A DNA stretch of 52,050 bases. Source: an uncultured virus (IMG/VR IMGVR_UViG_3300005611_000005). Its lineage: Duplodnaviria > Heunggongvirae > Uroviricota > Caudoviricetes. The notes beneath the pieces were generated by a model, which did not search any database, had not been told where the DNA came from, and saw only the letters and a list, made by a program, of their open reading frames with translations. Both the position numbers and the translations under genes were made by a program. The stretch lies in IMG/VR virus record IMGVR_UViG_3300005611_000005; one strand, given 5' to 3'. Numbering within the stretch: the stretch's first letter is position 1; every line of letters starts with the position of its first letter. Positions 11,633-48,370 of the stretch are shown here, in pieces.

Positions 11633-11671
11633 TAAAATATATTTGTATACAAAAAATTATTAAACACAGTT

Positions 11672-12439
11672 ATGAAAAAGAACATAATATTCATTCCGGC
11701 TATTGATGCTGGTAGAGGTAGACATCACGCATATAATTATAGTATTGATTCATGGAAAGGTTGGGCCGGCAAAAACGACGCAGATGTATTAGTTTGGGAT
11801 GTACCACTTTACACTTGGGAAGAAATGACAATTCCTTGGCAAAGATATCATTTATTTAAGATACTAGATCATAATGAAATTGAATTTGACCAGGTATTAA
11901 TGGTAGATTCAGATACTATTGTGCATCCTGATACTCCAAACTTTTTCGAATTAACCGAACGAAAGTATACAGGGGTATTAGATCTGGGGTGTTGGGAATG
12001 GACCGGTAGATCGATTCGACATTACAAGGACTTATTTAATGAATATAAAATTGATAGAGGTATGTACTTTAATGGAGGATTTCAAATTGTAAACGAATCG
12101 CATCGTAATTTTTTCGATACAGTTTTAGATTTCTATGAAAAAAATAAATCAATATTAGTAGAAAAACAAAAATCAGGTCTTGGGACTGACCAAACTCCAA
12201 TCAATTATCTTATTCAAACGAATGACATTGATTTAAAGTTACTTCCATCAACATATAATCTGCATCATATGTCAAGTAAAAATCTATTAAACTTTGGACA
12301 ATCTTGGTGGGGTGATAGTATGGAAAATTTATATGAACAAGCGTGGGTATATCATTTTAATGCTATACCTCGTAACAATTTAAATAGAGATTCAGCATAT
12401 TTCTTAAAACGAGCATATACCGAACTATGGGAAAAATAG
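11672..12439 (+). CDS. GT-A glycosyltransferase (GT8/GT34-like)
   Basis: VDSD, YFNGG, DQT..N, YN, HF motifs. Confidence 0.75.
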   Translation: MKKNIIFIPAIDAGRGRHHAYNYSIDSWKGWAGKNDADVLVWDVPLYTWEEMTIPWQRYHLFKILDHNEIEFDQVLMVDSDTIVHPDTPNFFELTERKYTGVLDLGCWEWTGRSIRHYKDLFNEYKIDRGMYFNGGFQIVNESHRNFFDTVLDFYEKNKSILVEKQKSGLGTDQTPINYLIQTNDIDLKLLPSTYNLHHMSSKNLLNFGQSWWGDSMENLYEQAWVYHFNAIPRNNLNRDSAYFLKRAYTELWEK

Positions 12440-13371: not shown

Positions 13372-13451
13372 AGTTAACTAAATTAGGAATGATGAAAAAT
13401 TTTACATATATTATAGTAAATTAGCTAAAGAACAATACCTAAATCATTATC

Positions 13452-14684: not shown

Positions 14685-15583
14685 AGAAGATTTTAGTAAC
14701 TGGGGGCTGTGGCTTCATAGGATCGTATCTTGTGGATACGTTAGTTGCAGAGGGGTATTCGGTATCCGTTTTAGACAATTTATCCTCAGAGTCCAGTTCT
14801 GAAGAAAATGTTAATCCATATGTAAAATATTATTTTGGAGATATACATAACATAGATATTATTTTAAATTTCGAGCAATTTGATGAAATTTATCATTTAG
14901 CTGCAGAAGCTAGAATTCAACCGTCATTTGATCAGCCAGTGCATTGGTTTAAAGAAAATGCATTAGGTACTATGAAGGTTTTAGAATATGCACGTCGAAG
15001 TAAATCTGGAATTGTAGTATACGCTACGACTTCTTCAAAGACTCATGGAATACATCATAGTCCATATACACTTTCGAAAGTAGTAGGTGAGGAAATTTTA
15101 AAAATGTATCATGAAGCGTATGGAATTAAATGTGTATCAGCTACATTTCATAATGTATATGGACCAGGCGAGCCTAATAAAGGAGAATGGGCTACAGTAG
15201 TAGCAAAATTTCTTCACCAATACCGCAATGGCCAAAAATTAACAGTAGTAGGTACCGGTGATCAAGAACGAGACTTTACTCACGTAGCTGACATTTGTGA
15301 AGGGCTGATGGCTTTAGGAGATTTTAAAAATTGGCCACTTGAAATATATCCTGATGGTCGAAATTTTGATTTAGGAAAAGGAGAGGCAATTTCTATTATT
15401 GATCTTGCACGATATATTGTCGATGGCATAGACTCGAAGATTGATTTTGTTCCATTTCGTAAAAATGAAGGTCAACGTACTTTAGCAGATGTAGAAACGA
15501 CATACAAATATTTTAATTTTCGAGCTAATCGCTCTTTATTTGATTATATAAACTTCATTAAACAACAAATACATAAATTATGA
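14681..15583 (+). CDS. NAD-dependent NDP-sugar epimerase/dehydratase
   Basis: GGCGFIG, YTLSK (YxxxK), NVYGP, RDFTHV. Confidence 0.92.
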   Translation: MKKILVTGGCGFIGSYLVDTLVAEGYSVSVLDNLSSESSSEENVNPYVKYYFGDIHNIDIILNFEQFDEIYHLAAEARIQPSFDQPVHWFKENALGTMKVLEYARRSKSGIVVYATTSSKTHGIHHSPYTLSKVVGEEILKMYHEAYGIKCVSATFHNVYGPGEPNKGEWATVVAKFLHQYRNGQKLTVVGTGDQERDFTHVADICEGLMALGDFKNWPLEIYPDGRNFDLGKGEAISIIDLARYIVDGIDSKIDFVPFRKNEGQRTLADVETTYKYFNFRANRSLFDYINFIKQQIHKL

Positions 15584-16440
15584 ACTCATCTATAGGAATT
15601 ATTGGACAAGGGTTTGTCGGTTCGGCAGTCCGCGAAGGAATGAAAAATCACTTCAATGTCGTTTGTTATGATAAAGATCCAAATAAATACAGTAATATTG
15701 GATCTATCTTTGAAATGATGGAAATTGTAGATACCACTTTTCTTTGCGTACCTACACCAATGCAACGATCAGGAGAATGCGATTTAGGAATAATTGGAGC
15801 CGCTCTTAACGATATCGCAGCATGTGCTAAAACTCTAGACAAAAAAGGATTTATCGTTATTATTAAATCTACGGTACCTCCTGGTACGACTGAATACTTC
15901 AATTCAATTTTTAAAGATTTAGATATCGTCTTCAATCCAGAGTTCTTAACTGAAGCGAATGCAATTGAAGATTATAAAAATCAAAATCGAATTATTATTG
16001 GAGGTGAAAGGCCAGGAACGACTCAGGTAAAACAAATATTTGCAAAGGCATTTCCTAAAGTTCCTATTATTAAGACTTCATCTACTATTGCAGAAATGAT
16101 TAAATACGTTACAAATACATTTCTAGCTACGAAAGTTTCTTTTGCAAATGAAATGTATCAAATTTGTCAAGCTCTAAACATTGATTACGATAAAGTAATT
16201 GAATATGCTCGCTATGACGATCGTTTAGGTAATTCGCATTGGGCAGTTCCCGGGCCAGACGGAGACAAAGGGTTTGGTGGAAGTTGCTTTCCGAAAGATG
16301 TTAATTCGTTAATATATCAAGCTAAATTATTTGGCATAGAGCCGACGATGCTTGAGGCTGCATGGAATAAGAATATTGAAGTTCGTCCTAGCAAAGATTG
16401 GGAACTTTTAAAAGGCAGAGCTATAAGCGACTCTTTATAA
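15580..16440 (+). CDS. UDP-glucose/GDP-mannose dehydrogenase family (short form)
   Basis: GQGFVG, CVPTP, KSTVPPG, NPEFL, GFGGSCFPKD; ends before the usual C-terminal UDP-binding domain. Confidence 0.9.
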   Translation: MNSSIGIIGQGFVGSAVREGMKNHFNVVCYDKDPNKYSNIGSIFEMMEIVDTTFLCVPTPMQRSGECDLGIIGAALNDIAACAKTLDKKGFIVIIKSTVPPGTTEYFNSIFKDLDIVFNPEFLTEANAIEDYKNQNRIIIGGERPGTTQVKQIFAKAFPKVPIIKTSSTIAEMIKYVTNTFLATKVSFANEMYQICQALNIDYDKVIEYARYDDRLGNSHWAVPGPDGDKGFGGSCFPKDVNSLIYQAKLFGIEPTMLEAAWNKNIEVRPSKDWELLKGRAISDSL

Positions 16441-22909: not shown

Positions 22910-23287
22910 ATGGCAGCAGAATTTGAAAAAATGATATCATTACTTTTAAGCTCGCAAACGCAAGCGCATGTATATCATTTGCAAACTGAATCGTATGCAG
23001 AGCATAAAGCTTTGCAAAAGTATTATGAAGGTATTGACGCGCTAACTGACGGTTTAGCAGAATCATATCAAGGTAAATTTGGTATTATTAAAAACTATAC
23101 CAATTACAGTATTAATTCATACAAGTCAACAGCAGACGTTATTAAATACTTCAAAGCTTTACATAAAAATGTTGAAACTTTACGTAAAGATTCTGACGTA
23201 GAAGATAATACATATCTTCAAAATCAAATTGACACAGTTAATGAACTTATTGCATCTACTTTATATAAACTTTCCTATTTGAAGTAA
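22910..23287 (+). CDS. ferritin/Dps-like four-helix protein (DUF5856-like)
   Basis: H..HLQT.SYAEHKAL..YY....D.LAE.YQG. Confidence 0.75.
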   Translation: MAAEFEKMISLLLSSQTQAHVYHLQTESYAEHKALQKYYEGIDALTDGLAESYQGKFGIIKNYTNYSINSYKSTADVIKYFKALHKNVETLRKDSDVEDNTYLQNQIDTVNELIASTLYKLSYLK

Positions 23288-23374
23288 TTGAAATTCGGTT
23301 ATGAAATTTTCTATTGATGCATGTGATATTGATAATTTATCAATGACCCTGTATATTTTATTATCTAATATAAG

Positions 23375-23539
23375 ATGAAACATTCTAAAGTTAAGAATCG
23401 TTTGAAATCATACTCGAATATTCGTCAGTATGATATTCATCATGATGATTTTGCTATGGATTCTAGCGACTTTGAATATGAAGAACGCAGAAGAAAGCAA
23501 AAACTAAAATCGAAAAAATCTACTAGATCGCAAGAGTAA
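23375..23539 (+). CDS. hypothetical small protein (not in ORF track)
   Basis: 54-aa ORF MKHSKVKNRL... fills the intergenic gap. Confidence 0.4.
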   Translation: MKHSKVKNRLKSYSNIRQYDIHHDDFAMDSSDFEYEERRRKQKLKSKKSTRSQE

Positions 23540-23615
23540 CTGACTACATTTGGCCAGTGCTGAAATACAACTGTTTTGTTGAAATTTCATATTTATTTTA
23601 AAGTAATCAATTGAT

Positions 23616-25355
23616 ATGAATGAAGATCTACGAGACTGGTTCGGTAAAGGAGGCAAAGGTGGAGTCGGCGGCGGAGGCTGGGATCGGTACAATTCATCAG
23701 GAGATAGAGTAGGTAAATGTGGCGACGCTAAAGAAGGTGATGCATATTCTGCTTGTCTATCTAAAGAAAAAGCACGAAAATTAGGAAAGGCTGGACGAGC
23801 GGCTTTTGTGAAAAGAAAACGAGCGGCTCAGAAAAAAGGAGGTGATGCTAAGAAAGGTGGCGAACGTTCAAAAGGTCAAAAGCCCATCAAAGTTAAAACA
23901 GAAAATTTCGCTGACGGTAAAAAACCAGGACGTAAAGGATTATCAAAACGTGTCGGTGTTAGTCAAAAAATGTCAATAGCACAGTTAGAAAAAATTGCAA
24001 AGACTGCCACTGGAGAACGTCGACGCATGGCACAGTGGAATTTAAATATGAAACGCGGTCGTATGAAAGAAGAATATTCTAAAGAATTAAATGAACGTAT
24101 AAAAATTATCGTAAGAGACGTAATTAATAAAATGGTACGTGGTGGATTCGGATCTCGCACTCCAGTACAAATGCGTGATGAAATTAAAGATAAATTAGCA
24201 GCGGTAATAAAACCTATTTTAAATAAATACGATTACATAACTGAAAATGATTCAGATTCATTAAAAGAAGATCAAATGGTTTCTCAACAAACTTTAAATA
24301 AAATTAAGTCGTATAAAATATCATATGGAAAATTCAATCAGAAAATGAAAACTGACTGGATTCCTATGTGGAAAGAAGAGTATGGCAATGACACAGCTCG
24401 CATTAATGAACTAGTTGCCCGTCAGTTATTATATCAAATATCAGAAGATTTATTTGGTGGGGTTGAAGAAATAGAATTTGCAAATAAATCTAAGAAACCT
24501 ACAAATCATTTTCAAATGAATATGTATTTAGGTGATGTAATTTTATGGACTAGTCCTTTTATATACGTCGACAACAATCATAAAGCTATCGCCAGACGAT
24601 CTGAAATTAAAGTTTTAAATAACGATTATGATGACATAGCGGTTCTAAAAGAAGCAGACGATCCGCAAGCAGGTAAATCAGCACCTTATGGTTCAGGATA
24701 CAAAAAAGTTAATGAAGTAGGTGATTCTTCGGCTCAACCATATAAGTATAAATTAAATGCCGAAACTTATTATAAAGTTGAATATACATTTACTACTGAT
24801 TCTGGTTTAGATTACATAGTTAAATTTGACCTAGATGATGATATGGCAGATGTAGTTTTTTTAACGAAACAATCTTTAGATATTGCAAGGTCAGGAGGTA
24901 AAAATGCATTTCTTCAAACGTTTAGCAAAGGAGAACTTTTTAAAGTTATGGCTACCATAACTAATATTGTTAAGGAATTTTTAGAAAAATATACTGACAT
25001 TAAAACGTTAGTTATATCTCCATCTAAAGAAGATGATACCGATAATCGAAGAGCTAAGTTATACTCAGCTTTTATTAAAAAGAATATTGTTTCTAGCAAA
25101 TATTCATTTAAAGAAAATGGAAAAGAAATGATTATTACGAGAAATTCAGTTAATGAAGCTCGAGCCCATAGACGTAAATTAGTTAATGAACTTAATTTAT
25201 TTTTAGAAACAAACGTACCGACTCAACCTGATAAATGGTCATATGCCAAGTCGCAAGCCAAGAAAAAATTCGATGTATATCCATCTGCATATGCCAATGC
25301 ATGGGCTGCCAAAAAGTATAAAGAATTAGGCGGCGGCTGGAGAAAGAAAAAATAA
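23616..25355 (+). CDS. mosaic multi-module phage protein (C-terminal DUF5872-like)
   Basis: Basic Gly-rich N-terminus; C-terminal KKFDVYPSAYANAWAAKKYKELGGGW. Confidence 0.7.
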   Translation: MNEDLRDWFGKGGKGGVGGGGWDRYNSSGDRVGKCGDAKEGDAYSACLSKEKARKLGKAGRAAFVKRKRAAQKKGGDAKKGGERSKGQKPIKVKTENFADGKKPGRKGLSKRVGVSQKMSIAQLEKIAKTATGERRRMAQWNLNMKRGRMKEEYSKELNERIKIIVRDVINKMVRGGFGSRTPVQMRDEIKDKLAAVIKPILNKYDYITENDSDSLKEDQMVSQQTLNKIKSYKISYGKFNQKMKTDWIPMWKEEYGNDTARINELVARQLLYQISEDLFGGVEEIEFANKSKKPTNHFQMNMYLGDVILWTSPFIYVDNNHKAIARRSEIKVLNNDYDDIAVLKEADDPQAGKSAPYGSGYKKVNEVGDSSAQPYKYKLNAETYYKVEYTFTTDSGLDYIVKFDLDDDMADVVFLTKQSLDIARSGGKNAFLQTFSKGELFKVMATITNIVKEFLEKYTDIKTLVISPSKEDDTDNRRAKLYSAFIKKNIVSSKYSFKENGKEMIITRNSVNEARAHRRKLVNELNLFLETNVPTQPDKWSYAKSQAKKKFDVYPSAYANAWAAKKYKELGGGWRKKK

Positions 25356-25360
25356 TTGCA

Positions 25361-25603
25361 ATGATCAAACTTAAAGACATATTAGCAGAAGATTGTTGGA
25401 AAGGGTATCGTCAAGTCGGTATGAAAAAGAAAGGTAAACGCATGGTACCTAATTGCGTTCCAGTAAAGGAAGATGTAGGAGACGATTTTGATAGACTGCA
25501 ATATTATTTACAATACATTAAAAATGTAGTACCAAGCTCTTTTTCCGTACATGCAGAATCTGATTCTATTATAATTAAATTACCAAAAATTGATAATTAT
25601 TAA
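25361..25603 (+). CDS. hypothetical protein with MIKLKDILAE leader
   Basis: Leader followed by CWKGY...VPNCVP module. Confidence 0.7.
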   Translation: MIKLKDILAEDCWKGYRQVGMKKKGKRMVPNCVPVKEDVGDDFDRLQYYLQYIKNVVPSSFSVHAESDSIIIKLPKIDNY

Positions 25604-25631
25604 TAACCGTTAAACGAATACAATTAAAGAT

Positions 25632-26249
25632 ATGGAATATGTGGTACCAATAATCGTTGCGTTTATAACAGCTGTCATCGGACCTTCAGTATTAGAATGG
25701 GTTCGAAATAAATTTAAAGAACGATCGGCTACAAAATCTCCTATACAAGAAGCTTTAGAATTAAATGAACGAGTCGACTCGCAACTGGAACAACTACTTC
25801 ATGAACTGGAATGTGATCGTATATGGATAGCACAATTTCATAATGGAGGTCATTTCTATCCTACCGGAAAATCAATACAAAAGTTTTCGATATTTTACGA
25901 AAAAGTTTCTGCAGGAGTCAATTCCATACAACATACATATCAAAACATACCAGTTTCGCTATTTCCAAAAGCATTTTCGAAAATTTACAAAGATGAAGAG
26001 TTGTCAATTGACAGTGTCGATGAAGATGATCAATTGTATGATTTAGGCAATTTTGCTAGGAACTGTGGAACAAAATCCTTATATTTCGTACCGATATATT
26101 CATTAAACTCGAATATGATAGGAATTTTATCTATTTCATACAATACGAAAGAATATAAATTAACGCAAGAAGATCGCACGTATATATTTTCTAAAGCCGG
26201 AGCGATAGGAGCCCTGTTAGAAGAATATTTAAAAACTAAAAAATCATGA
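25632..26249 (+). CDS. N-terminal TM plus GAF-like domain protein (possible T-holin-like)
   Basis: Hydrophobic residues ~4-21; L.CDR..IAQFHNG; S..FVPI....IGILSI GAF-like strands. Confidence 0.6.
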   Translation: MEYVVPIIVAFITAVIGPSVLEWVRNKFKERSATKSPIQEALELNERVDSQLEQLLHELECDRIWIAQFHNGGHFYPTGKSIQKFSIFYEKVSAGVNSIQHTYQNIPVSLFPKAFSKIYKDEELSIDSVDEDDQLYDLGNFARNCGTKSLYFVPIYSLNSNMIGILSISYNTKEYKLTQEDRTYIFSKAGAIGALLEEYLKTKKS

Positions 26250-26491
26250 ATATCGCATTAAGAAATTTAATTCGTAACGAAACTTATAAAATTTTAGATG
26301 AGCTAAAATTGGTTAATGAAACTGTATACAAGCTTCGAACTGACTCCGTAACCGTTAGCGTCGATTCGGATAATCAGAAACTAGTTACATTGAAAGCAGA
26401 TCAGGGTACGGAACTAACTATGACTACAGAAGAGTTTGTAAAAATAGCTCGTTTTCTTAGAAAAAACGGAATTATTACTGATAAAATTTAA
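26246..26491 (+). CDS. hypothetical protein with LRNLIRNE leader variant
   Basis: Coupled ORF. Confidence 0.6.
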   Translation: MNIALRNLIRNETYKILDELKLVNETVYKLRTDSVTVSVDSDNQKLVTLKADQGTELTMTTEEFVKIARFLRKNGIITDKI

Positions 26492-26514
26492 TCTGCATAC
26501 ATAAACTCTTCATC

Positions 26515-29500
26515 ATGAAACGATTACTATTATTTCTACTACTCCTTGTAGCAAACTATTCATTTGCACAACCTGGTGGTAATTGTCCAAATGCCGATTT
26601 CTCCATGAATGGATTTCAAAACTGGGTTGGTGGGATTGGCAACTGCTGTCCTATTGTGATTACGAATCCAAACACCATTCAAAATGGTCGTCATACCATT
26701 ATGACTCCTGGTCTAGACCCCATTATTAATGCTCTAACAAGAACACCTCCTGGCACTCCTCAATCCGCTCGCTTAGGGAACAGTCAGGTAGGGGCTCAGG
26801 CGGAAAGTTTAACCTACTCGTTTACGGTTTCTCAGCAAAATGCTCTATTTATATATAGGTATGCGGTGGTATTACAAGACCCAGGTCACCCACCTATTGC
26901 TCAACCTCGTTTTGAAATGCAAGTTAGAAATCAAAACGGAGGCATTATTCCTTGCACATTTTATCAAGTAGCTGCTGGCAACAACATCCCAGGTTTTGTA
27001 AACCAAGGTCAGGTTCGGTGGAGAAACTGGACCACAACCGGCGTCAATCTGTTGAATTATGTGGGTCAGGTTGTTACAATTGAAGCTAGAACGGGTGACT
27101 GCGATTATTCTGGTCACTATGGTTATGCATATTTAGCCGCCGAATGCCGCCCACTTCAAATTGATATCACTTATTGTGTAGGAGATACAGTTGCTACCTT
27201 AGTTGCTCCTCCGGGGTTTGTGGGTTACCAATGGTCAAATGGAGCTACCACTCAGCAAATTTCAATTGTGAATCCTACCTGGGGTCAGAATGTATATCAA
27301 GTTACATTGACTTCAGCTACCGGTTGTACAGCTCAACTTTCTGCAAATATCAACCCTGTATTACCAAATGCTCATTTTAATTGGCAAAGTCTATGTAATG
27401 GCCAAATACAATTTAACGATTCTACCGTAATACCAGGAGTTCAGCCCGCTGTATGGAATTGGTCCTTTGGTGATGGAGGCCAATCATCATTCCAGAATCC
27501 AATTCATACATATCAGAGTCCAGGCCCATACAATGTTACTTTAATTTCATCAGCTCAGGTTGGCTGTGAAGATACTGTCACATTACCAATAGTAGTACCT
27601 CCAATTCCTTATGCCAATTTCAATATCGATACCCTTTGTGGTTTAACTAAAAACTTTACAGATCAATCCACAATTGCTAACCCTGGCGGTATTGTTTCTT
27701 GGTTTTGGGACTTTGGGGACGGTACTACAGATACTATTCAAAATACATCGCATACCTATTCTTCACCAGGTAATTTCAACGTAACTTTAATCGTAACTGA
27801 CAGTGTAGGATGTTCAGATACTATTACCAAACCTGTCATAATTAACTCAATACCTCAAGCCAGCTTTACAACGCAAAACGTATGTGCTGGTCAGAATATG
27901 CCATTTACTAATACTTCAACTATTTTAGGAGGTGGATTAATGAACCACTCTTGGAATTTTGGTAATGGCGCAACTTCAATACAAACATCTCCATGGTATC
28001 AATACCCTAATCCAGGTACCTATACAGTAACTTTAATTGTAACAGGCCCTGGTGGATGTAAAGATACTGCAACTCAACAAGTGACCGTTAATCCTATACC
28101 AGTAGCGGCCTTTACATTACCGAATACATGCGGACTAAGTGATACAATAACAAATATATCAACAGTTTCTCCTCCAGCACAAATAACCTCCTATCAATGG
28201 AATTTAGGAAATGGACAAACCTCTAACCAACAGAATCCTATTTACAATTATGCTAATCCCGGTGTATATAATGTTACGCTAACTGTCACTTCAACTGGTG
28301 GATGTACTGACTCAGAAACTCAGCCACTTACAATTAATTCAATACCGGTAGCTTCGTTTACTGCTCCGCAAACTTGTCATGGAAATGCAGTGCCATTTAC
28401 TAATACATCAACTATTTTAGGTAATGCCAACTTAAACTATCAATGGAATTTTGGTAATGGTAATACTTCTAATCAAACAAATCCTACTCAACTTTATGCC
28501 AATCCAGGACAGTATTTAGTAACATTAATAGTAACAGGTCCAGGCTCATGCTCTGATACAGTTACTCAAACTGTTAATGTACCACCAACCCCAGTTGCTA
28601 ATATTAGTATTCCTGATTCATGCGGATTGGCGGGCCAGTTATCAAGTACCTCAATTATAGCCCCTCCTGGATTTATTACTTCATATCAATGGGACTTAGG
28701 TAATGGCCAAACAGCTAATCAACCAAACACTAATTACAATTATAATAGTCCTGGAGTTTATAACGTTACCTTAATAGTAAGTTCTAATCAGGGATGTTCT
28801 GATACCATTACTCAACCTGTAACTATTTGGTCAATACCAACGGCTCAATTTACCCATACACCTACATGCTATGGAATACCTTTTAACTTTACCGACCAAT
28901 CAACAATAACCAATTCTCAGATAATAGGATGGAATTGGTCTTTGGGAAATGGACAAACTTCTAACCAACAGAATCCTAGTCATTTTTACAATACTAATGG
29001 TCAATATCCAGTACAATTAATTGTAACGGGTCAAGGTGGATGTACAGATACAGTTACCGATGTTATAACAGTATATCCTAAACCAACTGCAGCCTTTGTT
29101 CTTCCTGATTCGTGTGGAATGTCAGCTGCATTTACCGACTTGAGTTTATTTAATATTGCCTCTTGGAATTGGAATTTTGGCGATGGTAATACTTCTAATC
29201 AAACCAGTCCAACTCATGTATATCAAACTAACGGCACCTATCAAGTGCAATTAATTGTGCAAAATACAGACGGATGTTTAGACACTTTGGTTCAAGAGTA
29301 TAGAAATTATCATATTCCTATTGCTGATATTATCACTACAAATAACTGCTTAACTTACCCTACAGTTGTATTAGACAATTCAACAGTACAAAATAGTCAA
29401 ATTTCAACATGGAATTGGAGCGTAAACAATATCAACCAGACTTCACAGAATTTTAACAATACTTTTGCTTCGCCTGGAATTTATCAAGTCAATTTAGTAG

Positions 29501-30570
29501 TGACCTCAGTTGATGGGTGTATCGATTCTACTTCAGGTCAGTTTGAAGTTTATCCATTACCTTTCGTTAGTTTTATATCGCCCGATGAATGTGCTGGAGA
29601 TTCAGTTACCTTTACTAACTTATCAACTGGAGCAACTACATACCAATGGTATCTAAATGGTAATTTATTTTCTACCTCAACCAATCCTAAAAATGCTTAT
29701 CCATGGGGTCAATACCAGGTTCAATTAATTGGAACTAATCAATATGGATGTCAAGATAGTTTAATTCAATTGTTAACTGTACATCCAAGACCAATTCCAA
29801 GTTTTGGTGGTCAATTTGAAGGATGCATACCTTTACAAGTATTTTTAGATAACCAAACTACAATAGCTAACAACGGAATTATAAGTTCATATATATGGGA
29901 TATAGAAGGAACTACTTACTATACAGAAGACATAAATTTAACATACGGTTCAGTAGGAAATTATTCAGTTAGTTTAACCGCAATATCAGATAAAGGATGT
30001 GATTCAACTATTAGTTTTATTGATGTTATTAAAACATATCCTTTACCCAATGCTGAATTTGCATATTCACCTGAAAATCCGACGACTGCAAATACCAAAG
30101 TAGAATTTACAAATTTATCTCAAGGAAATTTATATAATACATGGGAAGTAATGTCTCAAACATTTACTGAAACTCATATTTCATATACATTTCCTGCAGA
30201 TACAGGTAGATATTTAATTTACCTTCATGTTGAAAATGAATATGGATGTACAGATTCAATTTACCATCCAATTTATATTAATTCTAATTTTACAGTATTT
30301 ATTCCCAACTCATTTACTCCAACCAGAGATGGATTAAATGATTCATTTAAAATTTACGGCACCGGAATTGTTGAAGCTGAAATGTTAGTTTTTGATAGAT
30401 GGGGTGAATTGATATCATCTTATAAAAATTTAGAACCTATGACTAAAGGTTGGGACGGTAGATATAATGGACAACCTGTAAAACAAGATGTTTATACTTA
30501 CAAAATCAAAGTTAGAGATTTCAAAGGCAAATGGCATGATTTTATAGGTCAGGTAAATTTATTGAAATGA
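26515..30570 (+). CDS. secreted PKD-repeat protein with T9SS type B (gliding-motility-associated) C-terminal domain
   Basis: Sec signal (MKRLLLFLLLLVANYSFA-Q); 8 clear W.[FL]G[DN]G PKD repeats plus ~4 degenerate; IPNSFTP..DGLND, FDRWG, GWDG, YTY. Confidence 0.9.
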   Translation: MKRLLLFLLLLVANYSFAQPGGNCPNADFSMNGFQNWVGGIGNCCPIVITNPNTIQNGRHTIMTPGLDPIINALTRTPPGTPQSARLGNSQVGAQAESLTYSFTVSQQNALFIYRYAVVLQDPGHPPIAQPRFEMQVRNQNGGIIPCTFYQVAAGNNIPGFVNQGQVRWRNWTTTGVNLLNYVGQVVTIEARTGDCDYSGHYGYAYLAAECRPLQIDITYCVGDTVATLVAPPGFVGYQWSNGATTQQISIVNPTWGQNVYQVTLTSATGCTAQLSANINPVLPNAHFNWQSLCNGQIQFNDSTVIPGVQPAVWNWSFGDGGQSSFQNPIHTYQSPGPYNVTLISSAQVGCEDTVTLPIVVPPIPYANFNIDTLCGLTKNFTDQSTIANPGGIVSWFWDFGDGTTDTIQNTSHTYSSPGNFNVTLIVTDSVGCSDTITKPVIINSIPQASFTTQNVCAGQNMPFTNTSTILGGGLMNHSWNFGNGATSIQTSPWYQYPNPGTYTVTLIVTGPGGCKDTATQQVTVNPIPVAAFTLPNTCGLSDTITNISTVSPPAQITSYQWNLGNGQTSNQQNPIYNYANPGVYNVTLTVTSTGGCTDSETQPLTINSIPVASFTAPQTCHGNAVPFTNTSTILGNANLNYQWNFGNGNTSNQTNPTQLYANPGQYLVTLIVTGPGSCSDTVTQTVNVPPTPVANISIPDSCGLAGQLSSTSIIAPPGFITSYQWDLGNGQTANQPNTNYNYNSPGVYNVTLIVSSNQGCSDTITQPVTIWSIPTAQFTHTPTCYGIPFNFTDQSTITNSQIIGWNWSLGNGQTSNQQNPSHFYNTNGQYPVQLIVTGQGGCTDTVTDVITVYPKPTAAFVLPDSCGMSAAFTDLSLFNIASWNWNFGDGNTSNQTSPTHVYQTNGTYQVQLIVQNTDGCLDTLVQEYRNYHIPIADIITTNNCLTYPTVVLDNSTVQNSQISTWNWSVNNINQTSQNFNNTFASPGIYQVNLVVTSVDGCIDSTSGQFEVYPLPFVSFISPDECAGDSVTFTNLSTGATTYQWYLNGNLFSTSTNPKNAYPWGQYQVQLIGTNQYGCQDSLIQLLTVHPRPIPSFGGQFEGCIPLQVFLDNQTTIANNGIISSYIWDIEGTTYYTEDINLTYGSVGNYSVSLTAISDKGCDSTISFIDVIKTYPLPNAEFAYSPENPTTANTKVEFTNLSQGNLYNTWEVMSQTFTETHISYTFPADTGRYLIYLHVENEYGCTDSIYHPIYINSNFTVFIPNSFTPTRDGLNDSFKIYGTGIVEAEMLVFDRWGELISSYKNLEPMTKGWDGRYNGQPVKQDVYTYKIKVRDFKGKWHDFIGQVNLLK

Positions 30571-30583
30571 TATTTATTATAAA

Positions 30584-30898
30584 ATGAAAACTACGTTACT
30601 TAAATTGGTTATCGGCTTAACCTTAATATACAAAACCATGAAAAAATTGTTTAGCCGCTCATCTTTGATTATGCAAATCTTCCAAGATGATAAAGGAAAT
30701 TATTCTAGCAATCGCTTTGTTGGAATTATGTGTGCACTATCCCTTTGTGTAACTATGTATCACAACCAATTCACTACAGAAGACATTGCTCCTGCTCCTA
30801 TGTTGATTCAATCAGTAGCAGCATTAGCTTTTGGTGCTTTAGGTTTGGGTGCAGCAACTCGCATCTTTAAAAAAGAAAATAACAATGAACAAAATTGA
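30584..30898 (+). CDS. small two-TM membrane protein (holin-like candidate)
   Basis: SSNRF followed by two hydrophobic segments; start may be 30638. Confidence 0.55.
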   Translation: MKTTLLKLVIGLTLIYKTMKKLFSRSSLIMQIFQDDKGNYSSNRFVGIMCALSLCVTMYHNQFTTEDIAPAPMLIQSVAALAFGALGLGAATRIFKKENNNEQN

Positions 30899-31139
30899 AT
30901 TACGAAAACTAATTAAAGAAGAGCTTGCGGCTGTTATGTCGCAAGCTTCTCATGATGACCATGAAATTGAAATGGCAATTACAGATTTAAAATCTATTGC
31001 TAGTAGAGCAGCTCAATTAGTAAAATTTATGGAACAAAACCAGCCACACGAACTAGAGGGCTGGATCCAATCTAAAATTACTAAATCAGCTGACTATATC
31101 AATGCAGTTTACGACAATTTCATGTTTCCTGGTAAATAA
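30885..31139 (+). CDS. hypothetical protein with MNKIELRKLIKEEL leader
   Basis: ATG 30885; E.MA...L and LEGWIQSKIT.S.DY. Confidence 0.7.
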   Translation: MNKIELRKLIKEELAAVMSQASHDDHEIEMAITDLKSIASRAAQLVKFMEQNQPHELEGWIQSKITKSADYINAVYDNFMFPGK

Positions 31140-31145
31140 ATTTTA

Positions 31146-31754
31146 ATGATGTTATTTCGAATAATTTTAGTTACGATTGCGATTAGTATATCTAACAATC
31201 TGTTCGCTCAATGTGCAGGTCAACAATCTTTTACTCTAAACCCTCAACCAACTAACAACACCTATTCTCCAGGTACAGTGGTAACAGTATGTTATACAAT
31301 GACTGGATGGAATGGTACTGGATTTGGGTCTAATTGGCTAGAAGGATTTGACCTTAACTTAGGACCTGGATGGACTTCGGTAATACCTTCAGCAGCTCCA
31401 ATTAACTGTTCTAATGCAGGTCAATGGATTTGGGTTGCAAATACAGTAACTTCTAGCTCAACAGGAATTACAGTAGGTCCTGGATGGTTTTATGAAGGTC
31501 CTGCTGGACCAGTAGATGGTAACCCTGGAAATGATTGGGGAGATTTTGGTACTAACTGTAGTTGGTCTTTTTGCTTTCAACTAATTGCTACTCAACAATG
31601 CACTCCTCAGAATTTATTAATTCAAATAACTGCGGGTGCCGATGGTACATGGGGTAGTTGGGGCATTAATGGATGTCCAACTGTTCCTTTTAATATATTC
31701 AATGGTACAATTAACGGTTCTACAGTTTTAACCTCACCTATATCCCACAATTGA
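31146..31754 (+). CDS. secreted Cys/Trp/Gly-rich beta protein
   Basis: Signal peptide ending LFA-Q; C-terminus TSPISHN. Confidence 0.75.
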   Translation: MMLFRIILVTIAISISNNLFAQCAGQQSFTLNPQPTNNTYSPGTVVTVCYTMTGWNGTGFGSNWLEGFDLNLGPGWTSVIPSAAPINCSNAGQWIWVANTVTSSSTGITVGPGWFYEGPAGPVDGNPGNDWGDFGTNCSWSFCFQLIATQQCTPQNLLIQITAGADGTWGSWGINGCPTVPFNIFNGTINGSTVLTSPISHN

Positions 31755-31755
31755 T

Positions 31756-32298
31756 ATGAAATTTATATTTACGACATTAGCTCTATTTGTTAGCTTTACT
31801 TTAAGTGCTCAGTTTAGTTGCCCTGATACAGTATGTGCTGGCGATTCAATTAATTACTGGGTTCAAAACACTCCAGGCTCTACTTATAATTGGTCATTAA
31901 CTGGAGGAGGAACCTTAATTAATTCGCCATCCAATCAGGTAGCAATTAACTGGGGGCAGGCAAATGGTACTTACACTTTAACTGTTACAGAAACTAACTC
32001 TCAAGGATGTATAGGTAATCCTGTTGTATGTTTGATTGAAATTATGCAACCTGTTGTTCAGCTACTACCAATAGCAAATATCTGTCAAGATTCGCCAGCA
32101 TTTAATTTTCAAGCATTCCCGGCAGGGGGCACGTGGATAGTAAATGGAAACGGATCAGGAGGATTATTTAATCCACTCAACCCAGGTATATATAACGTAA
32201 CTTACACTTACACAAATATAGCAGGTTGTACAACTTCAGCAGGTACATCCTTTACAGTTTACCCATTACCAAACACTTCACCAGTTATCCATGACTAG
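31756..32298 (+). CDS. secreted Ig/PKD-like protein
   Basis: Signal ending LSA-Q; GSTYNW, V.ETN..GC; C-terminus TSPVIHD. Confidence 0.75.
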   Translation: MKFIFTTLALFVSFTLSAQFSCPDTVCAGDSINYWVQNTPGSTYNWSLTGGGTLINSPSNQVAINWGQANGTYTLTVTETNSQGCIGNPVVCLIEIMQPVVQLLPIANICQDSPAFNFQAFPAGGTWIVNGNGSGGLFNPLNPGIYNVTYTYTNIAGCTTSAGTSFTVYPLPNTSPVIHD

Positions 32299-32860
32299 AT
32301 TTGCATTCTTATTATTGCTAGCAATTAGTCCTCTATTCGGTCAACAAAGAGTTGATTTATGCAGGGCATCATCTTTCCAATATTATGCTGTGGAAGGATA
32401 TCCTAATTCAACTTACGAATGGTATATTGATACTATGTTGATTGGCCAGTCAGGCAATACAATTGGTGTACAGTGGCCTGAAGATACAACTAGAACTTAT
32501 GCCATCAAAGTAAGAGAGATAAGTGAATTTAATTGTGAAGGTCCTTATAGAGCATTATATGTTACTGTTAGTCCTTGCTTTACTTTATACATACCTAACT
32601 GTATCACTATTAATGGAGATGGATTAAATGAAACTTTTTCAATCTATGGTGAACAATGGGAATTTACCTCTTTCTATGTTACTATACACGACAGATGGGG
32701 TACTCAATTATTTCAGTCTGAAGATCCTTACTTTGTATGGGATGGTACCTACAACGGGACAATAGTCCCTCAGGGTGTATATACTTATCGTATTAACTAT
32801 ACTCAAAATAAGAAACCATACTACGATAATATTCTTGGACAATTAACACTACTACGATGA
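32291..32860 (+). CDS. secreted protein with T9SS type B C-terminal domain
   Basis: Signal peptide; IPNCIT.NGDGLNE, DRWG, WDG, GVYTY. Confidence 0.82.
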   Translation: MTRFAFLLLLAISPLFGQQRVDLCRASSFQYYAVEGYPNSTYEWYIDTMLIGQSGNTIGVQWPEDTTRTYAIKVREISEFNCEGPYRALYVTVSPCFTLYIPNCITINGDGLNETFSIYGEQWEFTSFYVTIHDRWGTQLFQSEDPYFVWDGTYNGTIVPQGVYTYRINYTQNKKPYYDNILGQLTLLR

Positions 32861-33459
32861 AAAAATCAGAGCTTCAACAAATTATTAGAGAAGAAATCTC
32901 TAATGTATTAAATGAAATGCCTTTAATAACTAAAAAAGGTAAAACAGCTTACGCAGATGGTAAGCCATTAAAATTATCTAATGTCGAAGAATTAGATAAA
33001 AATATAATCATGTATCATGAGAAGCAAGGTAATTGGTTTATAGCTAAAGATACAATTATGTTATGGTTTGTTGATAATGAAAATTACATTGACAAATTAA
33101 ACAGCGGAGAATATGACATAGTGACGTTCCCGATTAGGACATCATCTAATGCCTTTACTGTTAGTCCTATCACTGATGTATGGAAACTTTCAAAGTCACG
33201 TGGTAAGAAAGAAGTATTAGGTATGATTAATGCATACTTATATAAAGATGAGTTAGTTATAGAAATGATGTCAGTACGAGGTGCGTGGCAAGGTAATCGA
33301 ATCAACTCATTAATGATAGATTCTCTTAAAAGTTCATTTCCAGGCAAAACATTAGCATTTGAAGATCCTACAAAAGACGGATGGGCATTTATTGAAAAAT
33401 ACGCTCCTGATGCTAAAGTTTATGAAGATGGTAAAGTTGTACAAAATAAAGTTGCTTAA
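32857..33459 (+). CDS. GNAT-like acetyltransferase with MKKSELQQIIREEI leader
   Basis: IEMMSV...WQGNRI..LM (motif A-like), T.DG..F. Confidence 0.55.
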   Translation: MKKSELQQIIREEISNVLNEMPLITKKGKTAYADGKPLKLSNVEELDKNIIMYHEKQGNWFIAKDTIMLWFVDNENYIDKLNSGEYDIVTFPIRTSSNAFTVSPITDVWKLSKSRGKKEVLGMINAYLYKDELVIEMMSVRGAWQGNRINSLMIDSLKSSFPGKTLAFEDPTKDGWAFIEKYAPDAKVYEDGKVVQNKVA

Positions 33460-33462
33460 ATA

Positions 33463-33494
33463 TTTGTTTCTTTGTTTTAATTTACTTATCTTTA
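33463..33494 (+). promoter_or_regulatory. Bacteroidota sigma-A-type (early) promoter
   Basis: TTTG-N20-TATCTTTA. Confidence 0.75.
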
Positions 33495-33520
33495 GATATA
33501 GAAATTAAAAAGCAAATATT

Positions 33521-33757
33521 ATGGACGTAAAATTATCAATTGTAATCAAACATCATTTAAACATGGCTAGGTTTTACTCTGCCAATCCAGATTTCGAGGT
33601 GGATGAGTCATCAGCATCGGAGTTAGCTGTACAGCATATCGACTTTGTTCAGTACCTGCTTGATAATCGAGCTGATCTATATAGAATTTCAGATGAAGAG
33701 GCTAATGAGATATGGAACAAAGTAAACGGTGAAACCCCCACCAACATAGTAAAATAA
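33521..33757 (+). CDS. hypothetical protein
   Basis: ORF directly behind promoter. Confidence 0.65.
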   Translation: MDVKLSIVIKHHLNMARFYSANPDFEVDESSASELAVQHIDFVQYLLDNRADLYRISDEEANEIWNKVNGETPTNIVK

Positions 33758-33758
33758 A

Positions 33759-33790
33759 TTTGGCTCTTTGATCTATTTTATTTATCTTTA
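33759..33790 (+). promoter_or_regulatory. Bacteroidota sigma-A-type (early) promoter
   Basis: TTTG-N20-TATCTTTA. Confidence 0.75.
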
Positions 33791-33810
33791 GATATAGAAA
33801 TTAAAAAGTT

Positions 33811-33969
33811 ATGAGATACATTGTTAAAGTAGCTAAAAACGGTGAAATCAGAAACATCCATCACACAAATGACTACTCAAGTGCATTTGAAGTAGAAAAA
33901 ACAGCTAAGCTATTAAATTACGATGCTGTTTGGATTTGCGATTGTTTAATGGAAATTTTAGTAGGTTAA
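33811..33969 (+). CDS. hypothetical protein (not in ORF track)
   Basis: 52-aa ORF MRYIVKVAKNG... behind promoter. Confidence 0.65.
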   Translation: MRYIVKVAKNGEIRNIHHTNDYSSAFEVEKTAKLLNYDAVWICDCLMEILVG

Positions 33970-33987
33970 TTAAATAAAAATAGAGTT

Positions 33988-34287
33988 ATGACAAATTTTG
34001 CATCAACAAACAACAGAGGGTTTCAAATGACATTTGAGAATGGCTGGACCATTTCAGTTCAATTTGGATATGGTAATTATTGTTCTAATAGGAACCATCC
34101 AGACGGGTGGTACGCATCTAAAGATGTAGAGTATTTTTCATGCCCTGATGCTGAGATTGCCATTTGGGATTCGTTTGGGGAACATTATAATTTTGGGCAT
34201 GATACCGTTAAAGACTACTGCTCAACGGATGAAGTTGCTGAATGGATTACTAAGGTATCTCATCCAGAGTTTGGCTCCACCAAATAG
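33988..34287 (+). CDS. hypothetical phage protein (paralogue of 47020)
   Basis: GFQMTFENGWTISVQFG...AEIAI. Confidence 0.7.
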   Translation: MTNFASTNNRGFQMTFENGWTISVQFGYGNYCSNRNHPDGWYASKDVEYFSCPDAEIAIWDSFGEHYNFGHDTVKDYCSTDEVAEWITKVSHPEFGSTK

Positions 34288-34301
34288 TCTACGTATATTT
34301 A
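34270..34301 (+). promoter_or_regulatory. Bacteroidota sigma-A-type (early) promoter
   Basis: TTTG-N20-TATATTTA. Confidence 0.7.
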
Positions 34302-34327
34302 CATAAGAAATTAAAAATAAAACAGTT

Positions 34328-34825
34328 ATGACATTCAAAGAACTTTTAATCAAATTAGACGCTTGCGAAAGAGCAAAAGAATGGGTAGGAGATATGACTA
34401 TCGAAGAATTAGTTGCAACCTGCGACCGAGGCGATTGGGGGCTTTGGCTTGCAAAAAAAGTTGATGTAGATTTGCGACTTCGCACATTAGCGAAAGGGCA
34501 TTGTGCAAACACAGTTAGGCATTTAATGAAAGATGAGCGAAGCCTAAACGCTGTTGATGTAGCTATTGCATTTGGAGAAGGTAAGGCTACACGTGAAGAG
34601 TTAGATGCTGCTGCTTATGCTGCTGCTTATGCTGCTGATGCCGCTGCTGCTGATGCTTATGCTGCTGCTGCTGCTGCTTTTGTTGCTTATGCTGCTGCTG
34701 ATGCTGCTATTGCTACTGCTGATGCTTATGCTGCTGCTGCCAACCGCCAACAAGCCGCCGACATCTGCCACCAGTATATCGGTGAAGCTTTAATCGAAAA
34801 AGTAAACCAATTATTAACCAAATAA
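34328..34825 (+). CDS. phage protein with Ala-rich low-complexity tract (Imm5-like)
   Basis: C.RGDW.LW, D.RS..A, AT.EEL then AAAY/AAD repeats. Confidence 0.7.
   Translation: MTFKELLIKLDACERAKEWVGDMTIEELVATCDRGDWGLWLAKKVDVDLRLRTLAKGHCANTVRHLMKDERSLNAVDVAIAFGEGKATREELDAAAYAAAYAADAAAADAYAAAAAAFVAYAAADAAIATADAYAAAANRQQAADICHQYIGEALIEKVNQLLTK
34604..34741 (+). repeat. degenerate GCT trinucleotide tract
   Basis: Runs of gct interrupted by tat/gat codons. Confidence 0.85.
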
Positions 34826-34838
34826 ACTAAAAACAGTT

Positions 34839-35063
34839 ATGAGTGAATCACTTGCTAATTTTTATCAACAAGAGTATTCCGATGCACAAAAACGTATTTC
34901 AAAGTTTGCTCAGGCATATGGTATGTTTACAGGTACTTTGAAATGTATTGAAGATGGTTCAATGACAAAGGAAGAAATCCGTAAACGTATTGAAGCTATG
35001 GAAGTTGATATTTGGAATCAAATACAAGATAAATCTGTAGCCATTTTAACCCTACCTGAATGA
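34839..35063 (+). CDS. hypothetical protein
   Basis: ORF with aaaacagttATG leader. Confidence 0.65.
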   Translation: MSESLANFYQQEYSDAQKRISKFAQAYGMFTGTLKCIEDGSMTKEEIRKRIEAMEVDIWNQIQDKSVAILTLPE

Positions 35064-48336: not shown

Positions 48337-48370
48337 CTGTTTTTTTTTGTTTAACTTTAATTTAATTAGT

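Follow-up and report, generated by a model that had tools for sequence, protein, structure and literature searches.

We favor, with moderate confidence, the interpretation that a large myovirus-like phage of Flavobacteriales carries two sets of host-type surface adhesins, which would be shown on the infected cell by way of the host type IX secretion system (T9SS) and an unlinked host shuttle. The genes lie in the window, the whole stretch of 52,050 nucleotides that was analyzed (IMG/VR record IMGVR_UViG_3300005611_000005, an uncultured virus). The first set would be a full-size fibrillar adhesin with a glycan-binding-type tip, a PKD stalk and a C-terminal domain (CTD) of type B, and the second a miniaturized adhesin made as three separately secreted pieces, p202, p180 and p189 (Table 1).

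Table 1. Coordinates of the adhesin genes, their domains and their neighbors in the window.
Feature	Position	Strand	Description
Leader-bearing small phage gene upstream of the block	25361..25603	+	MIKLKDIL... type leader
Large adhesin, fibrillar adhesin-type T9SS type B cargo, 1351 aa	26515..30570	+	Open reading frame confirmed where the earlier note placed it; signal peptide aa 1-18, followed by Gln; CBM/MAM-like tip ~aa 20-215; Ig-like ~aa 216-285; 10 PKD repeats; type B CTD aa 1262-1351
Host-like recombinant segment within the tip domain, ~720 bp	26594..27313	+	60-nt identity bins vs L041
Type B CTD of the large adhesin	30298..30567	+	PF13585, TIGR04131, alignment A3
Predicted membrane protein, 104 aa	30584..30898	+
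Small gene with shared N-terminal leader	30885..31139	+	Leader MNKIELRKLIKEE...; between the two cargo sets
p202, secreted tip piece	31146..31754	+	Signal peptide aa 1-21, Gln-Cys, adhesin/pilin-type beta-sandwich
p180, secreted stalk piece	31756..32298	+	Signal peptide and a pair of Ig/PKD-like domains; CTD lacking
p189, anchor piece or mini-cargo, 189 aa	32291..32860	+	Signal peptide aa 1-17, single Ig-like domain
Type B CTD of p189			aa 101-189; sole CTD in the split module
Leader-bearing gene downstream of the block	32857..33459	+	Leader MKKSELQQIIREE...

Architecture of the two adhesin sets

An earlier note, made from the sequence alone, had attributed PKD repeats to the 1351-aa protein, and type B CTDs and Sec signals followed by Gln to both this protein and the 189-aa protein. 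All of these features were recovered. In the Pfam scan, PKD_4 (PF18911) matched the large protein in 10 stretches (E 1.4e-145). Both CTDs scored above the curated cut-offs of CHU_C PF13585 (27 bits) and TIGR04131 (35 bits), with 49.4 bits (residues 1262-1335) and 54.8 bits (match ending at residue 1336 of 1351), respectively, for the large protein, and 60.1 bits and 51.5 bits (residues 101-188) for p189. Both also kept the blocks PN..T...DG.N, RWG, WDG..NG, Y.Y and G.v.L-R/K at the extreme C-terminus. Every conserved block of alignment A3 was present in the two domains, counted as A3 blocks and not as the five conserved motifs A-E described as required for secretion of type B substrates (PMC12618676). 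Inspection by eye and a simple hydrophobicity heuristic placed an n-region, an h-region and an A/G followed by Q in all four secreted open reading frames of the block. The identification of the 1351-aa and 189-aa products as type B CTD proteins that bear signal peptides of the Bacteroidota type is supported.

The large protein follows the order of tip, tandem repeats and surface anchor seen in fibrillar adhesins. Its fold was modeled with a pLDDT of 87, and the best VIA match of the tip was a porphyran CBM (Z 12.4, rmsd 3.6, 132 residues aligned), with MAM and reelin also among the matches. Ligand binding by this CBM-like fold is putative, as a likeness of fold shows no function. The tip also resembled C-terminal domains of phage tailspikes and fibers (CBA120 TSP4, Z 11.4; Kp7 gp52, Z 8.8), and on G002 some 11 kb separate a homolog from baseplate genes. 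Moreover, Ig-like and PKD domains are frequent on phage structural proteins. These observations would suit virion parts, either Ig/PKD-decorated fibers or a head decoration that helps the particle adhere to cells or particles. We regard such a role as very improbable: cleavable Sec signal peptides on all four proteins and a T9SS sorting domain on two of them would take the products out of the cytoplasm, the site of tailed phage assembly. In addition, the nearest relatives are cellular T9SS cargo, and in the window and on G001 the genes have small accessory genes as neighbors and lie well away from structural modules.

The 189-aa protein had been proposed as a second T9SS cargo. Its type B CTD bears this out in part, but by homology and gene order p189 is no lone cargo: it supplies the anchor of an adhesin module split over three genes. 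The order of beta-sandwich, Ig domains and CTD across p202, p180 and p189 is again that of a fibrillar adhesin. The model of p202 (pLDDT 85) gave VIA Z scores of 8.7-9.2 to AgI/II, PrgB and pilins, and its sequence has homologs in the N-terminal domains of both the fused phage proteins and the fibrillar cargo of cells. The PKD and Ig matches of p180 in the Pfam scan were weak; this protein shares homology with the repeats found in fibrillar cargo of cells, and its position in the module is conserved. Among the 93 loci compared, the tip/stalk/anchor gene order was kept in 16 (the window counted) and the parts were fused in 9. The equivalent of the module is a single protein of ~525 aa in some phages and a fibrillar adhesin of ~750-1750 aa in cells. 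Tip and type B CTD occurred together in 27 of 33 cellular relatives, 17 of which also had p180-type Ig repeats. This cellular family (L204-L241) shares the domain order of the phage mini-adhesin, with a tip at most 52% identical to p202 and ~6-15 Ig domains against ~3 in the phage, and differs from it in that the phage version is spread over three genes, every one of which encodes a signal peptide of its own. The gradient that runs from the cellular fibrillar adhesin through a miniature fused gene to the three-gene form clearly exemplifies the miniaturization and fission of genes in phages. Neither p202 nor p180 carries a CTD, and to reach the surface both would require a piggy-back or assembly step.

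Residence in the phage genome and probable exchange with the host

The block was held by the earlier note to sit between leader-bearing phage genes and to be integral to the genome, and both points were upheld. Leader-bearing genes flank it at 25361 and 32857; they belong, with the gene at 30885, to 12 window genes that have two leader types in common. Strain variants of the downstream gene diverge right after the leader. Relatives of the 104-aa membrane protein were not found in the viral loci examined. The window also holds a 16-kb cluster with glycosyltransferase, NeuB and CMP-transferase genes.

No capsid, tail or terminase gene is present in the window itself, and its viral nature is judged from gene content and relatives. 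An 86%-identical homolog was located on G001 together with baseplate wedge, primase and endonuclease VII genes (69 open reading frames scanned). G002 carries baseplate genes and genes 76-91% identical to those of the window, and the split module occurred on terminase-bearing contigs in two of five tested. Such a location, inside a phage genome as opposed to flanking host DNA, is the one expected of a moron-type accessory gene that a phage took from its host.

Part of the large gene is closely related to cellular DNA. Within the ~720-bp segment, nucleotide identity to the cellular contig L041, from a Flavobacteriales metagenome-assembled genome (MAG), was 97-100%, with three middle bins at 0.87-0.88, and in 60-nt bins it broke sharply at either side. 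The dS of the segment was 0.24 against L041 and 2.1 against the phage relative L001, and its GC3 was 0.335, compared with 0.196 in the remainder of the gene. The high identity suggests that the phage acquired this stretch from a host by recombination not long ago, and this one 720-bp segment thereby indicates a likely host. The chromosomal homologs on L041 and L042, both from Flavobacteriales MAGs, match the large phage adhesin in domain order and are 97-98% identical to it in the tip protein, whereas the phage protein has diverged from them in the stalk (59% identity) and CTD (65%).

A phage/host assembly chimera, in the block or in the segment, could produce such a pattern. Host and phage alleles co-occur, an X7 contig ending at 26583 resembles the L041-type signal peptide by eye, and in run X1 the segment forms a unitig of its own, the ends of which coincide exactly with the breakpoints. 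However, the depth of that unitig (339x) matches that of the phage flanks (358-365x), and the block junctions were bridged by contigs from four other studies. The 5′ flank is spanned by X5 (25052-26625) and X3 (23325-26598), X3 record 9 and X5 record 17 running from the upstream leader-bearing gene into the adhesin gene. The 3′ breakpoint is spanned by X7 (26995-27854) and X3 (26911-27432), the gene end by X1 (28418-31681) and the boundary at 32860 by X3 record 14 (30800-33510); X1 had loose ends at 32894 and its depth collapsed beyond. The 5′ junction is the weaker one, since its bridges reach just 5-32 bases into the segment. With these contigs in hand, the probability of a chimera is close to negligible.

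The abundance of the family in hosts (858 matches in one search, 582 genomic relatives in another) and the recent copying of part of the large gene from a host would also be expected of neutral passengers, useless to the phage. This is scarcely probable, because the genes have been under purifying selection across phage lineages with saturated dS. Indeed, dN/dS was 0.066 for the large gene against L001, and 0.24, 0.10 and 0.01 for p202, p180 and p189, respectively, with 23 synonymous differences and a single non-synonymous one between p189 and L005. Codon composition is phage-adapted outside the mosaic segment, where GC3 equals that of phage genes. Also against passengers, the three-gene layout is kept in diverged phages and near-identical sequence was found in 18 runs from ~11 studies. 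The Atlas clusters nearest to p189 were 100% viral.

Proposed export by the host T9SS and its PorP/SprF shuttles

The absence of a PorP/SprF partner from the window, as first noted, was confirmed and extended. The Pfam scan gave no PF11751 match in the 92 window open reading frames, and a home-made PorP HMM, which as a control recovered a non-training PorP in L068, found none in window open reading frames of at least 60 aa, nor across the related viral loci, 1.18 Mb in all. Each of the candidate hosts G004 and G005 encodes 4 PorP/SprF proteins and gave ~21 matches for type B CTDs; GldK, GldJ and PorU are also present, and in G005 they adjoin PorP/SprF genes. With ~21 type B proteins to 4 shuttles, unlinked shuttles are normal in this lineage. 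Consistent with this, a PorP gene lay within 2.5 kb of cellular homologs of the large adhesin at only 2 of 44 loci tested. By these gene counts the missing phage partner is no anomaly. In F. johnsoniae a cognate PorP/SprF is reported to adjoin type B cargo in 9 of 12 cases, which is typical and not universal, and orphan type B substrates are served by the unlinked shuttle Fjoh_1677 (PMC12618676). The same paper describes CTD-shuttle pairing as highly specific; as the phage CTD is only 65% identical to that of the host homolog, a host shuttle might refuse it.

The favored reading, that of host-type adhesins displayed by the infected cell, predicts the following route. The phage adhesins would cross the inner membrane by Sec, through their Bacteroidota Q-rule signal peptides, and the CTD-bearing proteins would then pass the host T9SS translocon. 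An unlinked PorP/SprF-type shuttle of the host would take these proteins, as one does the orphan substrates of F. johnsoniae, and keep them on the cell surface or gliding track, so that the infected cell would acquire phage-specified adhesive properties. Recombination may keep the large adhesin's tip in line with the allele that the host itself carries. Judged from the genes, infected freshwater and marine Flavobacteriales cells probably display phage-made sticky proteins in this way. Remodeling of the cell surface, masking of receptors, superinfection exclusion and jamming of the secretion channel, the roles suggested in the earlier note, are all putative.

Alternatively, small CTD proteins made in bulk might act as decoys or competitors that fill the host PorP/SprF shuttles or the translocon and block host type B adhesins, including gliding adhesins and possible phage receptors. 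The outcome would be superinfection exclusion, gliding arrest or the shielding of progeny from adsorbing to debris. The mini-cargo is indeed just one Ig domain and a CTD, its CTD piece is the most strongly conserved of the three, and 43 of the 97 viral proteins with a CTD are as short as 150-250 aa. Competition is conceivable with 4 shuttles for ~21 substrates, and Flavobacterium phage resistance is reported to map to gliding and T9SS genes (PMC9804748). We nevertheless consider decoys unlikely, as the tip of the large adhesin, complete and under selection, and its stalk of 10 repeats would be superfluous in a plug, and the tip of the mini-adhesin is under selection and fused to the anchor in other phages, which a working adhesin fits better.

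A bolder extension of the adhesin reading, to which we assign a distinctly low probability, is that infected cells become sticky for their own kin and that the mini-adhesin is exported piggy-back on the p189 CTD. Repeated host-to-phage recombination would hold the MAM/CBM-type tip near-identical to the host allele, and self-recognition or binding of the same glycan would join infected cells to uninfected neighbors, so that progeny would be released beside new hosts. The three pieces would be assembled in the periplasm and would form the first hetero-oligomeric piggy-back T9SS cargo.

Relation to known secretion systems and phages

Phage-encoded T9SS cargo is already published for type A CTDs. 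'Cryophage' (Bellas et al. 2020, PMC7468147) likewise carries strain-variable, host-type T9SS cargo genes that, in its authors' proposal, hijack the host's secretion and act in competition or superinfection. Its three genes, as described there, encode enzymes and a PA14 protein with type A sorting domains (PorV, A-LPS route), whereas the present phage has fibrillar adhesins with type B CTDs (PorP/SprF route), and one of these adhesins is split in three genes. PMC7468147 termed its case a unique occurrence; this view would need revising, as viral contigs frequently carry type B CTDs (350 stretches). The domain lay within 8 aa of the protein end in 97 of 98 CTD-bearing open reading frames of the window and viral loci.

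The F. johnsoniae orphans (2025, PMC12618676), type B substrates with no adjacent PorP/SprF that are secreted via a shared distant shuttle, serve as the working model here. They are chromosomal and their secretion is reported as proven, whereas the phage proteins would need the shuttle of another genome. In SprB-SprF and PG1035-PorP (Gorasia et al. 2022, PMC9143113), the type B CTD is described as anchoring at the surface by binding a PorP-like barrel; unlike these pairs, the present phage does not encode the barrel. Porphyromonas gingivalis phages also have signal peptides exposing an N-terminal Gln, and their Q-rule genes were read as an adaptation to host secretion with potential outer-membrane modification (PMC10367356). 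The main text of that paper assigns these proteins no function and contains none of the terms T9SS, 'type IX' or 'C-terminal domain'.

If the phage proteins are secreted as proposed, T9SS substrates can be encoded by a second genome and depend entirely on the shuttles of the resident cell, which bears on the specificity of type B CTD-shuttle pairing; the small natural CTD proteins (~185 aa) would then be usable as probes. For phage ecology, the genes add a widespread class of putative surface-remodeling accessory genes in large aquatic Bacteroidota phages, with the shared recombinant segment supplying a host link.

Type B sorting-domain proteins within a phage gene block

Both proteins described in the earlier note, of 1351 and 189 aa, were present as claimed, and each ended in a type B C-terminal sorting domain (CTD) of type IX secretion system (T9SS) cargo. 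TIGR04131 scored 54.8 bits in the 1351-aa protein and 51.5 bits over residues 101-188 of the 189-aa protein (cut-off 35), and CHU_C (PF13585) scored 49.4 bits (residues 1262-1335; cut-off 27) and 60.1 bits, respectively; the conserved CTD blocks were kept by both (alignment A3). The PKD repeats attributed to the large protein were also found, with PKD_4 (PF18911) matching 10 stretches at E 1.4e-145. Signal-peptide-like starts, called by eye and by a heuristic scan, were seen as well in the 202-aa and 180-aa ORFs between the two CTD ORFs, and Gln directly followed the predicted cleavage site in 4/4 of these ORFs. This pattern is described as usual for signal peptidase I substrates in Bacteroidota (PMC5837995), and an exposed N-terminal Gln is reported for P. 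gingivalis phage proteins (PMC10367356).

The window (52 kb, ~32% GC) carries densely packed genes on one strand, among them a dNMP kinase (phrog_139, 1.8e-53), an endolysin-like gene, a tmRNA and many ORFans; no capsid, tail or terminase gene was found among them. Megablast of 20 kb of the window against known phages gave no match, and an exact 40-mer of the window was not found in IMG/VR. The large protein was also found on a 58,498-bp ENA contig. The window was taken to be phage DNA because the related contigs G001 and G002 carry phage genes, including baseplate wedge genes. G001 (95,857 bp, CheckV 33% complete) encodes a large-protein homolog 86% identical, baseplate wedge subunits (phrog_219, 1.6e-21; phrog_261, 9.4e-19), primase, endonuclease VII, SbcD and a sigma factor (69 ORFs scanned). 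Genes that G002 (43,172 bp, 25% complete) has in common with the window were 76-91% identical, and its content includes a baseplate wedge gene, primase, SbcC and RusA (29 ORFs scanned). No terminase was found in G001-G003, which are fragments estimated to be 13-33% complete; the completeness estimates for G001 and G002 imply whole genomes of roughly 170-290 kb. In G001 the large adhesin is followed, ~3.4 kb downstream, by a second type B CTD protein, of 741 aa. Two CTD genes occurred in one locus in 5/93 viral loci.

Near-identical sequence (at least half of the words) was present in 18 runs from about 11 studies, the 20 rows in total representing 12 studies. Contigs from four studies were placed on window 23000-35000. 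The upstream phage genes were joined to the large gene in X3 record 9 (23325-26598) and X5 record 17 (25052-26625), the end of the large gene was spanned by X1 record 6 (28418-31681), and the 32860 boundary by X3 record 14 (30800-33510). The junctions near 26500 and 32860 are thus bridged in independent assemblies (runs X3 and X5), bearing out the earlier proposal that the block is integral to the phage genome and leaving a negligible probability that it is an assembly chimera of phage and host reads.

Positions of features in the window and in compared contigs
Feature	Position	Strand
Surface-glycan cluster, 16 kb	1094-16440	
Twelve leader genes	17961, 18783, 19288, 21933, 22454, 25361, 30885, 32857, 35272, 35607, 36115, 36416	
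Histone H1-like Hc1 protein, 62 aa	21720-21908	
Genes lacking from X7 variant	23616-26491	
Large adhesin, 1351 aa	26515-30570	+
Host-like segment of the tip	26594-27313	
p202 (predicted tip)	31146-31754	+
p180 (predicted stalk)	31756-32298	+
p189 (predicted anchor)	32291-32860	+
Insertion/deletion polymorphism	34319-34829	
Ala-rich ORF (phrog_18326)	34328-34825	
tmRNA gene	47965-48339	
Second CTD protein of G001, 741 aa	L001 17398-19623	
CTD match upstream of PorP/SprF match	G005:C16:9474-10690	
CTD match upstream of PorP/SprF match	G004:C169:9253-10469	

A split adhesin and a mosaic large adhesin

Comparison of gene layouts and domains identifies p202, p180 and p189 as the predicted parts of one split adhesin. 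Their order and spacing were repeated in viral loci (for example L156, L161, L129, L173, L199 and L180). The split layout was seen in 16 of 93 loci, including the window and the related phage locus L005, and a fused form with tip and CTD in one ORF in 9 of the 93 (five of 521-530 aa with tip, Ig and CTD, two of 607 aa and two of about 250 aa), counts for which some loci are duplicates of each other and the flanks extend 3 kb only. Cellular relatives of the p202 tip were found in 40 loci, with a called ORF in 33; they are about 750-1750 aa long and comprise a signal peptide, the tip, mostly ~6-15 p180-type repeats and a type B CTD. The CTD was present in 27/33 and absent from 6, and p180-type repeats were present in 17 of those 27. 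A virus-only p202 family (nearest Atlas clusters 98-100% viral) was considered and rejected on finding the 40 cellular loci. The nearest Atlas clusters of p189 were 100% viral (187 and 105 members), with Bacteroidota clusters next. The p202 model (pLDDT 85) predicted a beta-sandwich like those of adhesin and pilin domains; VIA Z values of 8.7-9.2 were barely over the tool's stated background, and Foldseek with this model returned nothing at E <= 0.001.

Relative to L005, dN/dS was 0.24 for p202, 0.10 for p180 and 0.01 for p189 (23 synonymous versus 1 non-synonymous differences), and the split layout was kept between lineages with saturated dS. Purifying selection on all three genes together with the persistence of the layout therefore argues that the split is maintained and is not decay.

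The N-terminal 300 residues of the large adhesin were modelled (pLDDT 87, pTM 0.81) as a jelly-roll with an Ig-like domain after it. Top VIA matches were carbohydrate-binding modules, MAM domains and reelin repeats, the best being 8xmz_B (Z 12.4, rmsd 3.6, 132 residues aligned), with further matches to 2xom_A (Z 11.8), 2v5y_A (Z 10.5) and 6a48_A (Z 9.9). Foldseek ranked the MAM-Ig module 2c9a_A first (1.8e-8), and Pfam Reelin_subrepeat-B was matched (about 1e-17 to 1e-18) by a paralog in the cellular loci L041 and L042. Members of the family abound in cellular Bacteroidota: 858 of 3195 candidate proteins were related at E <= 0.001, nearly all with PF13585 among the matches listed, and 582 genomic relatives were confirmed, of which 77 loci were retained.

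Compared with phage locus L001, the large gene had a dN/dS of 0.066 at a dS of 1.41, and its GC3 outside the tip was 0.196 (phage-gene mean 0.237). Low dN/dS and phage-like GC3 therefore indicate that this phage lineage has carried the gene for a long time, under selection. That the genes are neutral passengers is considered very improbable.

The tip has a separate history. Over the host-like segment, nucleotide identity to the cellular contig L041 was 0.87-1.00 (0.95-1.00 in 9/12 bins), dropping to 0.4-0.6 on its upstream side and to 0.5-0.75 on its downstream side, where L001 was nearer (0.68-0.89). Tip dS was 0.24 versus L041 and 2.1 versus L001, with protein identities of 98% and 93%, respectively. 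The genes flanking the cellular loci L041 and L042 encode HtpG, KdsA, a KpsF-like protein, a VWA protein and more CTD proteins. The 3′ breakpoint was bridged by X7 record 26 (26995-27854) and X3 record 10 (26911-27432), and the 5′ breakpoint, less firmly, by X5 up to 26625 and X3 up to 26598; in X1 the segment formed its own unitig (26596-27344) at a depth of 339.5, with flanks at 364.6 and 358. From these comparisons the mosaic is read as a recent recombination with a host allele. GC3 (segment 0.335, cellular copy 0.385, remaining window gene 0.196, L001 tip 0.247) favours transfer from host to phage, and this one segment points to a Flavobacteriales bacterium near the L041 genome as the candidate host. 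Recent transfer of the whole gene was rejected, the host-like part being ~720 bp and the remainder having phage codon composition and saturated dS.

Host shuttles and the distribution of viral cargo

As the earlier note had stated, no PorP/SprF partner, the shuttle for type B cargo, was visible in the window (0 matches in 92 ORFs). A PorP HMM of our own also found none in the window and 120 viral loci (1,179,999 bases), and recovered a non-training PorP in the cellular locus L068. PF11751 was not found in G001-G003, a weak result, since the control of that search was also without a match anywhere.

The candidate host genomes G004 and G005 (about 2.4 and 2.6 Mb) each carry 4 PorP/SprF genes and 21 TIGR04131 matches; GldK of G005 has a PorP as its neighbour, and a second PorP is next to GldJ and PorU. 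A PorP lay within 2.5 kb of cellular large-adhesin homologs in 2/44 loci (ORFs of 230-420 aa only), and our HMM detected PorP in the ~6-kb flanks in 3/77. One study describes an sprF-like gene adjoining 9/12 type B genes of F. johnsoniae, three orphan type B proteins served by the unlinked Fjoh_1677 and carried on the gliding machinery, and stresses high specificity of cargo and shuttle pairing (PMC12618676). PorP-like barrels hold type B proteins at the surface (PMC9143113). Because unlinked shuttles are usual in the candidate hosts and for the F. johnsoniae orphans, phage cargo that would use a host shuttle encoded elsewhere is plausible, subject to this pairing specificity. Each candidate host genome also has a type B CTD match that precedes a PorP/SprF match by 66 bases, both given with the same open-frame length (354 aa); this could be a fusion, or else a very small cargo encoded just before its shuttle.

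On the sequence evidence, the infected cell probably displays phage-specified adhesins. The cargo would be exported by Sec, would then pass through the T9SS and would be captured by a resident host shuttle, and the cell would thereby bear the adhesins. The 16-kb glycan-synthesis cluster fits this theme of surface remodelling. Competition for the shuttle or translocon, leading to superinfection exclusion or gliding arrest, is an unlikely alternative use of the same proteins, and it is very improbable that they are virion components.

Of 50,697 deposited phage records, 3 matched the 189-aa protein (two ~640-kb uncultured phages and one 4-kb fragment) and 5 the large protein. Alignments A3 (CTD) and A6 (tip) were too diverse for pattern scans, and the narrower A4 and A7 were used. 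Two narrow CTD patterns gave 401 stretches in IMG/VR, 350 of them confirmed, in records that can include host DNA; viral identity was checked for a few contigs, with baseplate genes on G001 and G002 and a terminase on G006 and G007 (2/5 tested). Among 97 terminal-CTD ORFs in the loci examined, 43 were of 150-250 aa and 78 had signal-peptide-like starts, 74 of these 78 with the A/S/G/C-Q pattern. A word-index search with the 189-aa protein gave 2 relatives only (24 candidates); an exhaustive search gave 51,798 domain cluster representatives at E <= 0.001, and the best 150 of these included many colinear forms of ~185-200 aa. T9SS cargo carrying type A domains has been published for a phage and was termed a unique occurrence (PMC7468147), and T9SS sorting domains near crAss-BACON ORFs are mentioned in passing elsewhere (PMC6949934). 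The literature searched, with supplements and subscription journals outside its scope, yielded no account of phages bearing type B CTDs, nor of the split module or the mosaic of host and phage sequence.

Other genes and variants in the window

Twelve small genes open with one of two common N-terminal leaders, MKKSELRQLIREEI... or MIKLKDLL.E..., conserved down to the DNA level. Strain variants from other samples part right after the leader, at 32894, and the leaders may therefore be recombination joints for gene cassettes. They presumably resemble the capsid-targeting sequences of T4, cut by the prohead protease after L/I-x-E.

In run X7 a low-depth contig passes from 23524 to 26558 through 9 other letters; this variant is without genes 23616-26491, and its entry into the adhesin gene falls within the signal peptide. 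Contigs in 3/4 runs (X1, X3 and X7) join 34318 directly to 34830, without the Ala-rich ORF. The surface-glycan cluster encodes several GT1 and GT2 glycosyltransferases, NeuB, a CMP-sugar cytidylyltransferase, an FkbM methyltransferase, a nucleotide-sugar epimerase and UDP-glucose dehydrogenase, as well as two families found more typically in eukaryotes (GT29 sialyltransferase, 1.1e-16; TOD1/MUCI70, 5.1e-16). The window also has a phage-encoded Hc1 protein (PF07432, 1.2e-14) and a tmRNA gene (Rfam RF00023, 54.1 bits, gathering score 47), for which the tag peptide given by ARAGORN is long and has AVAA at its end.
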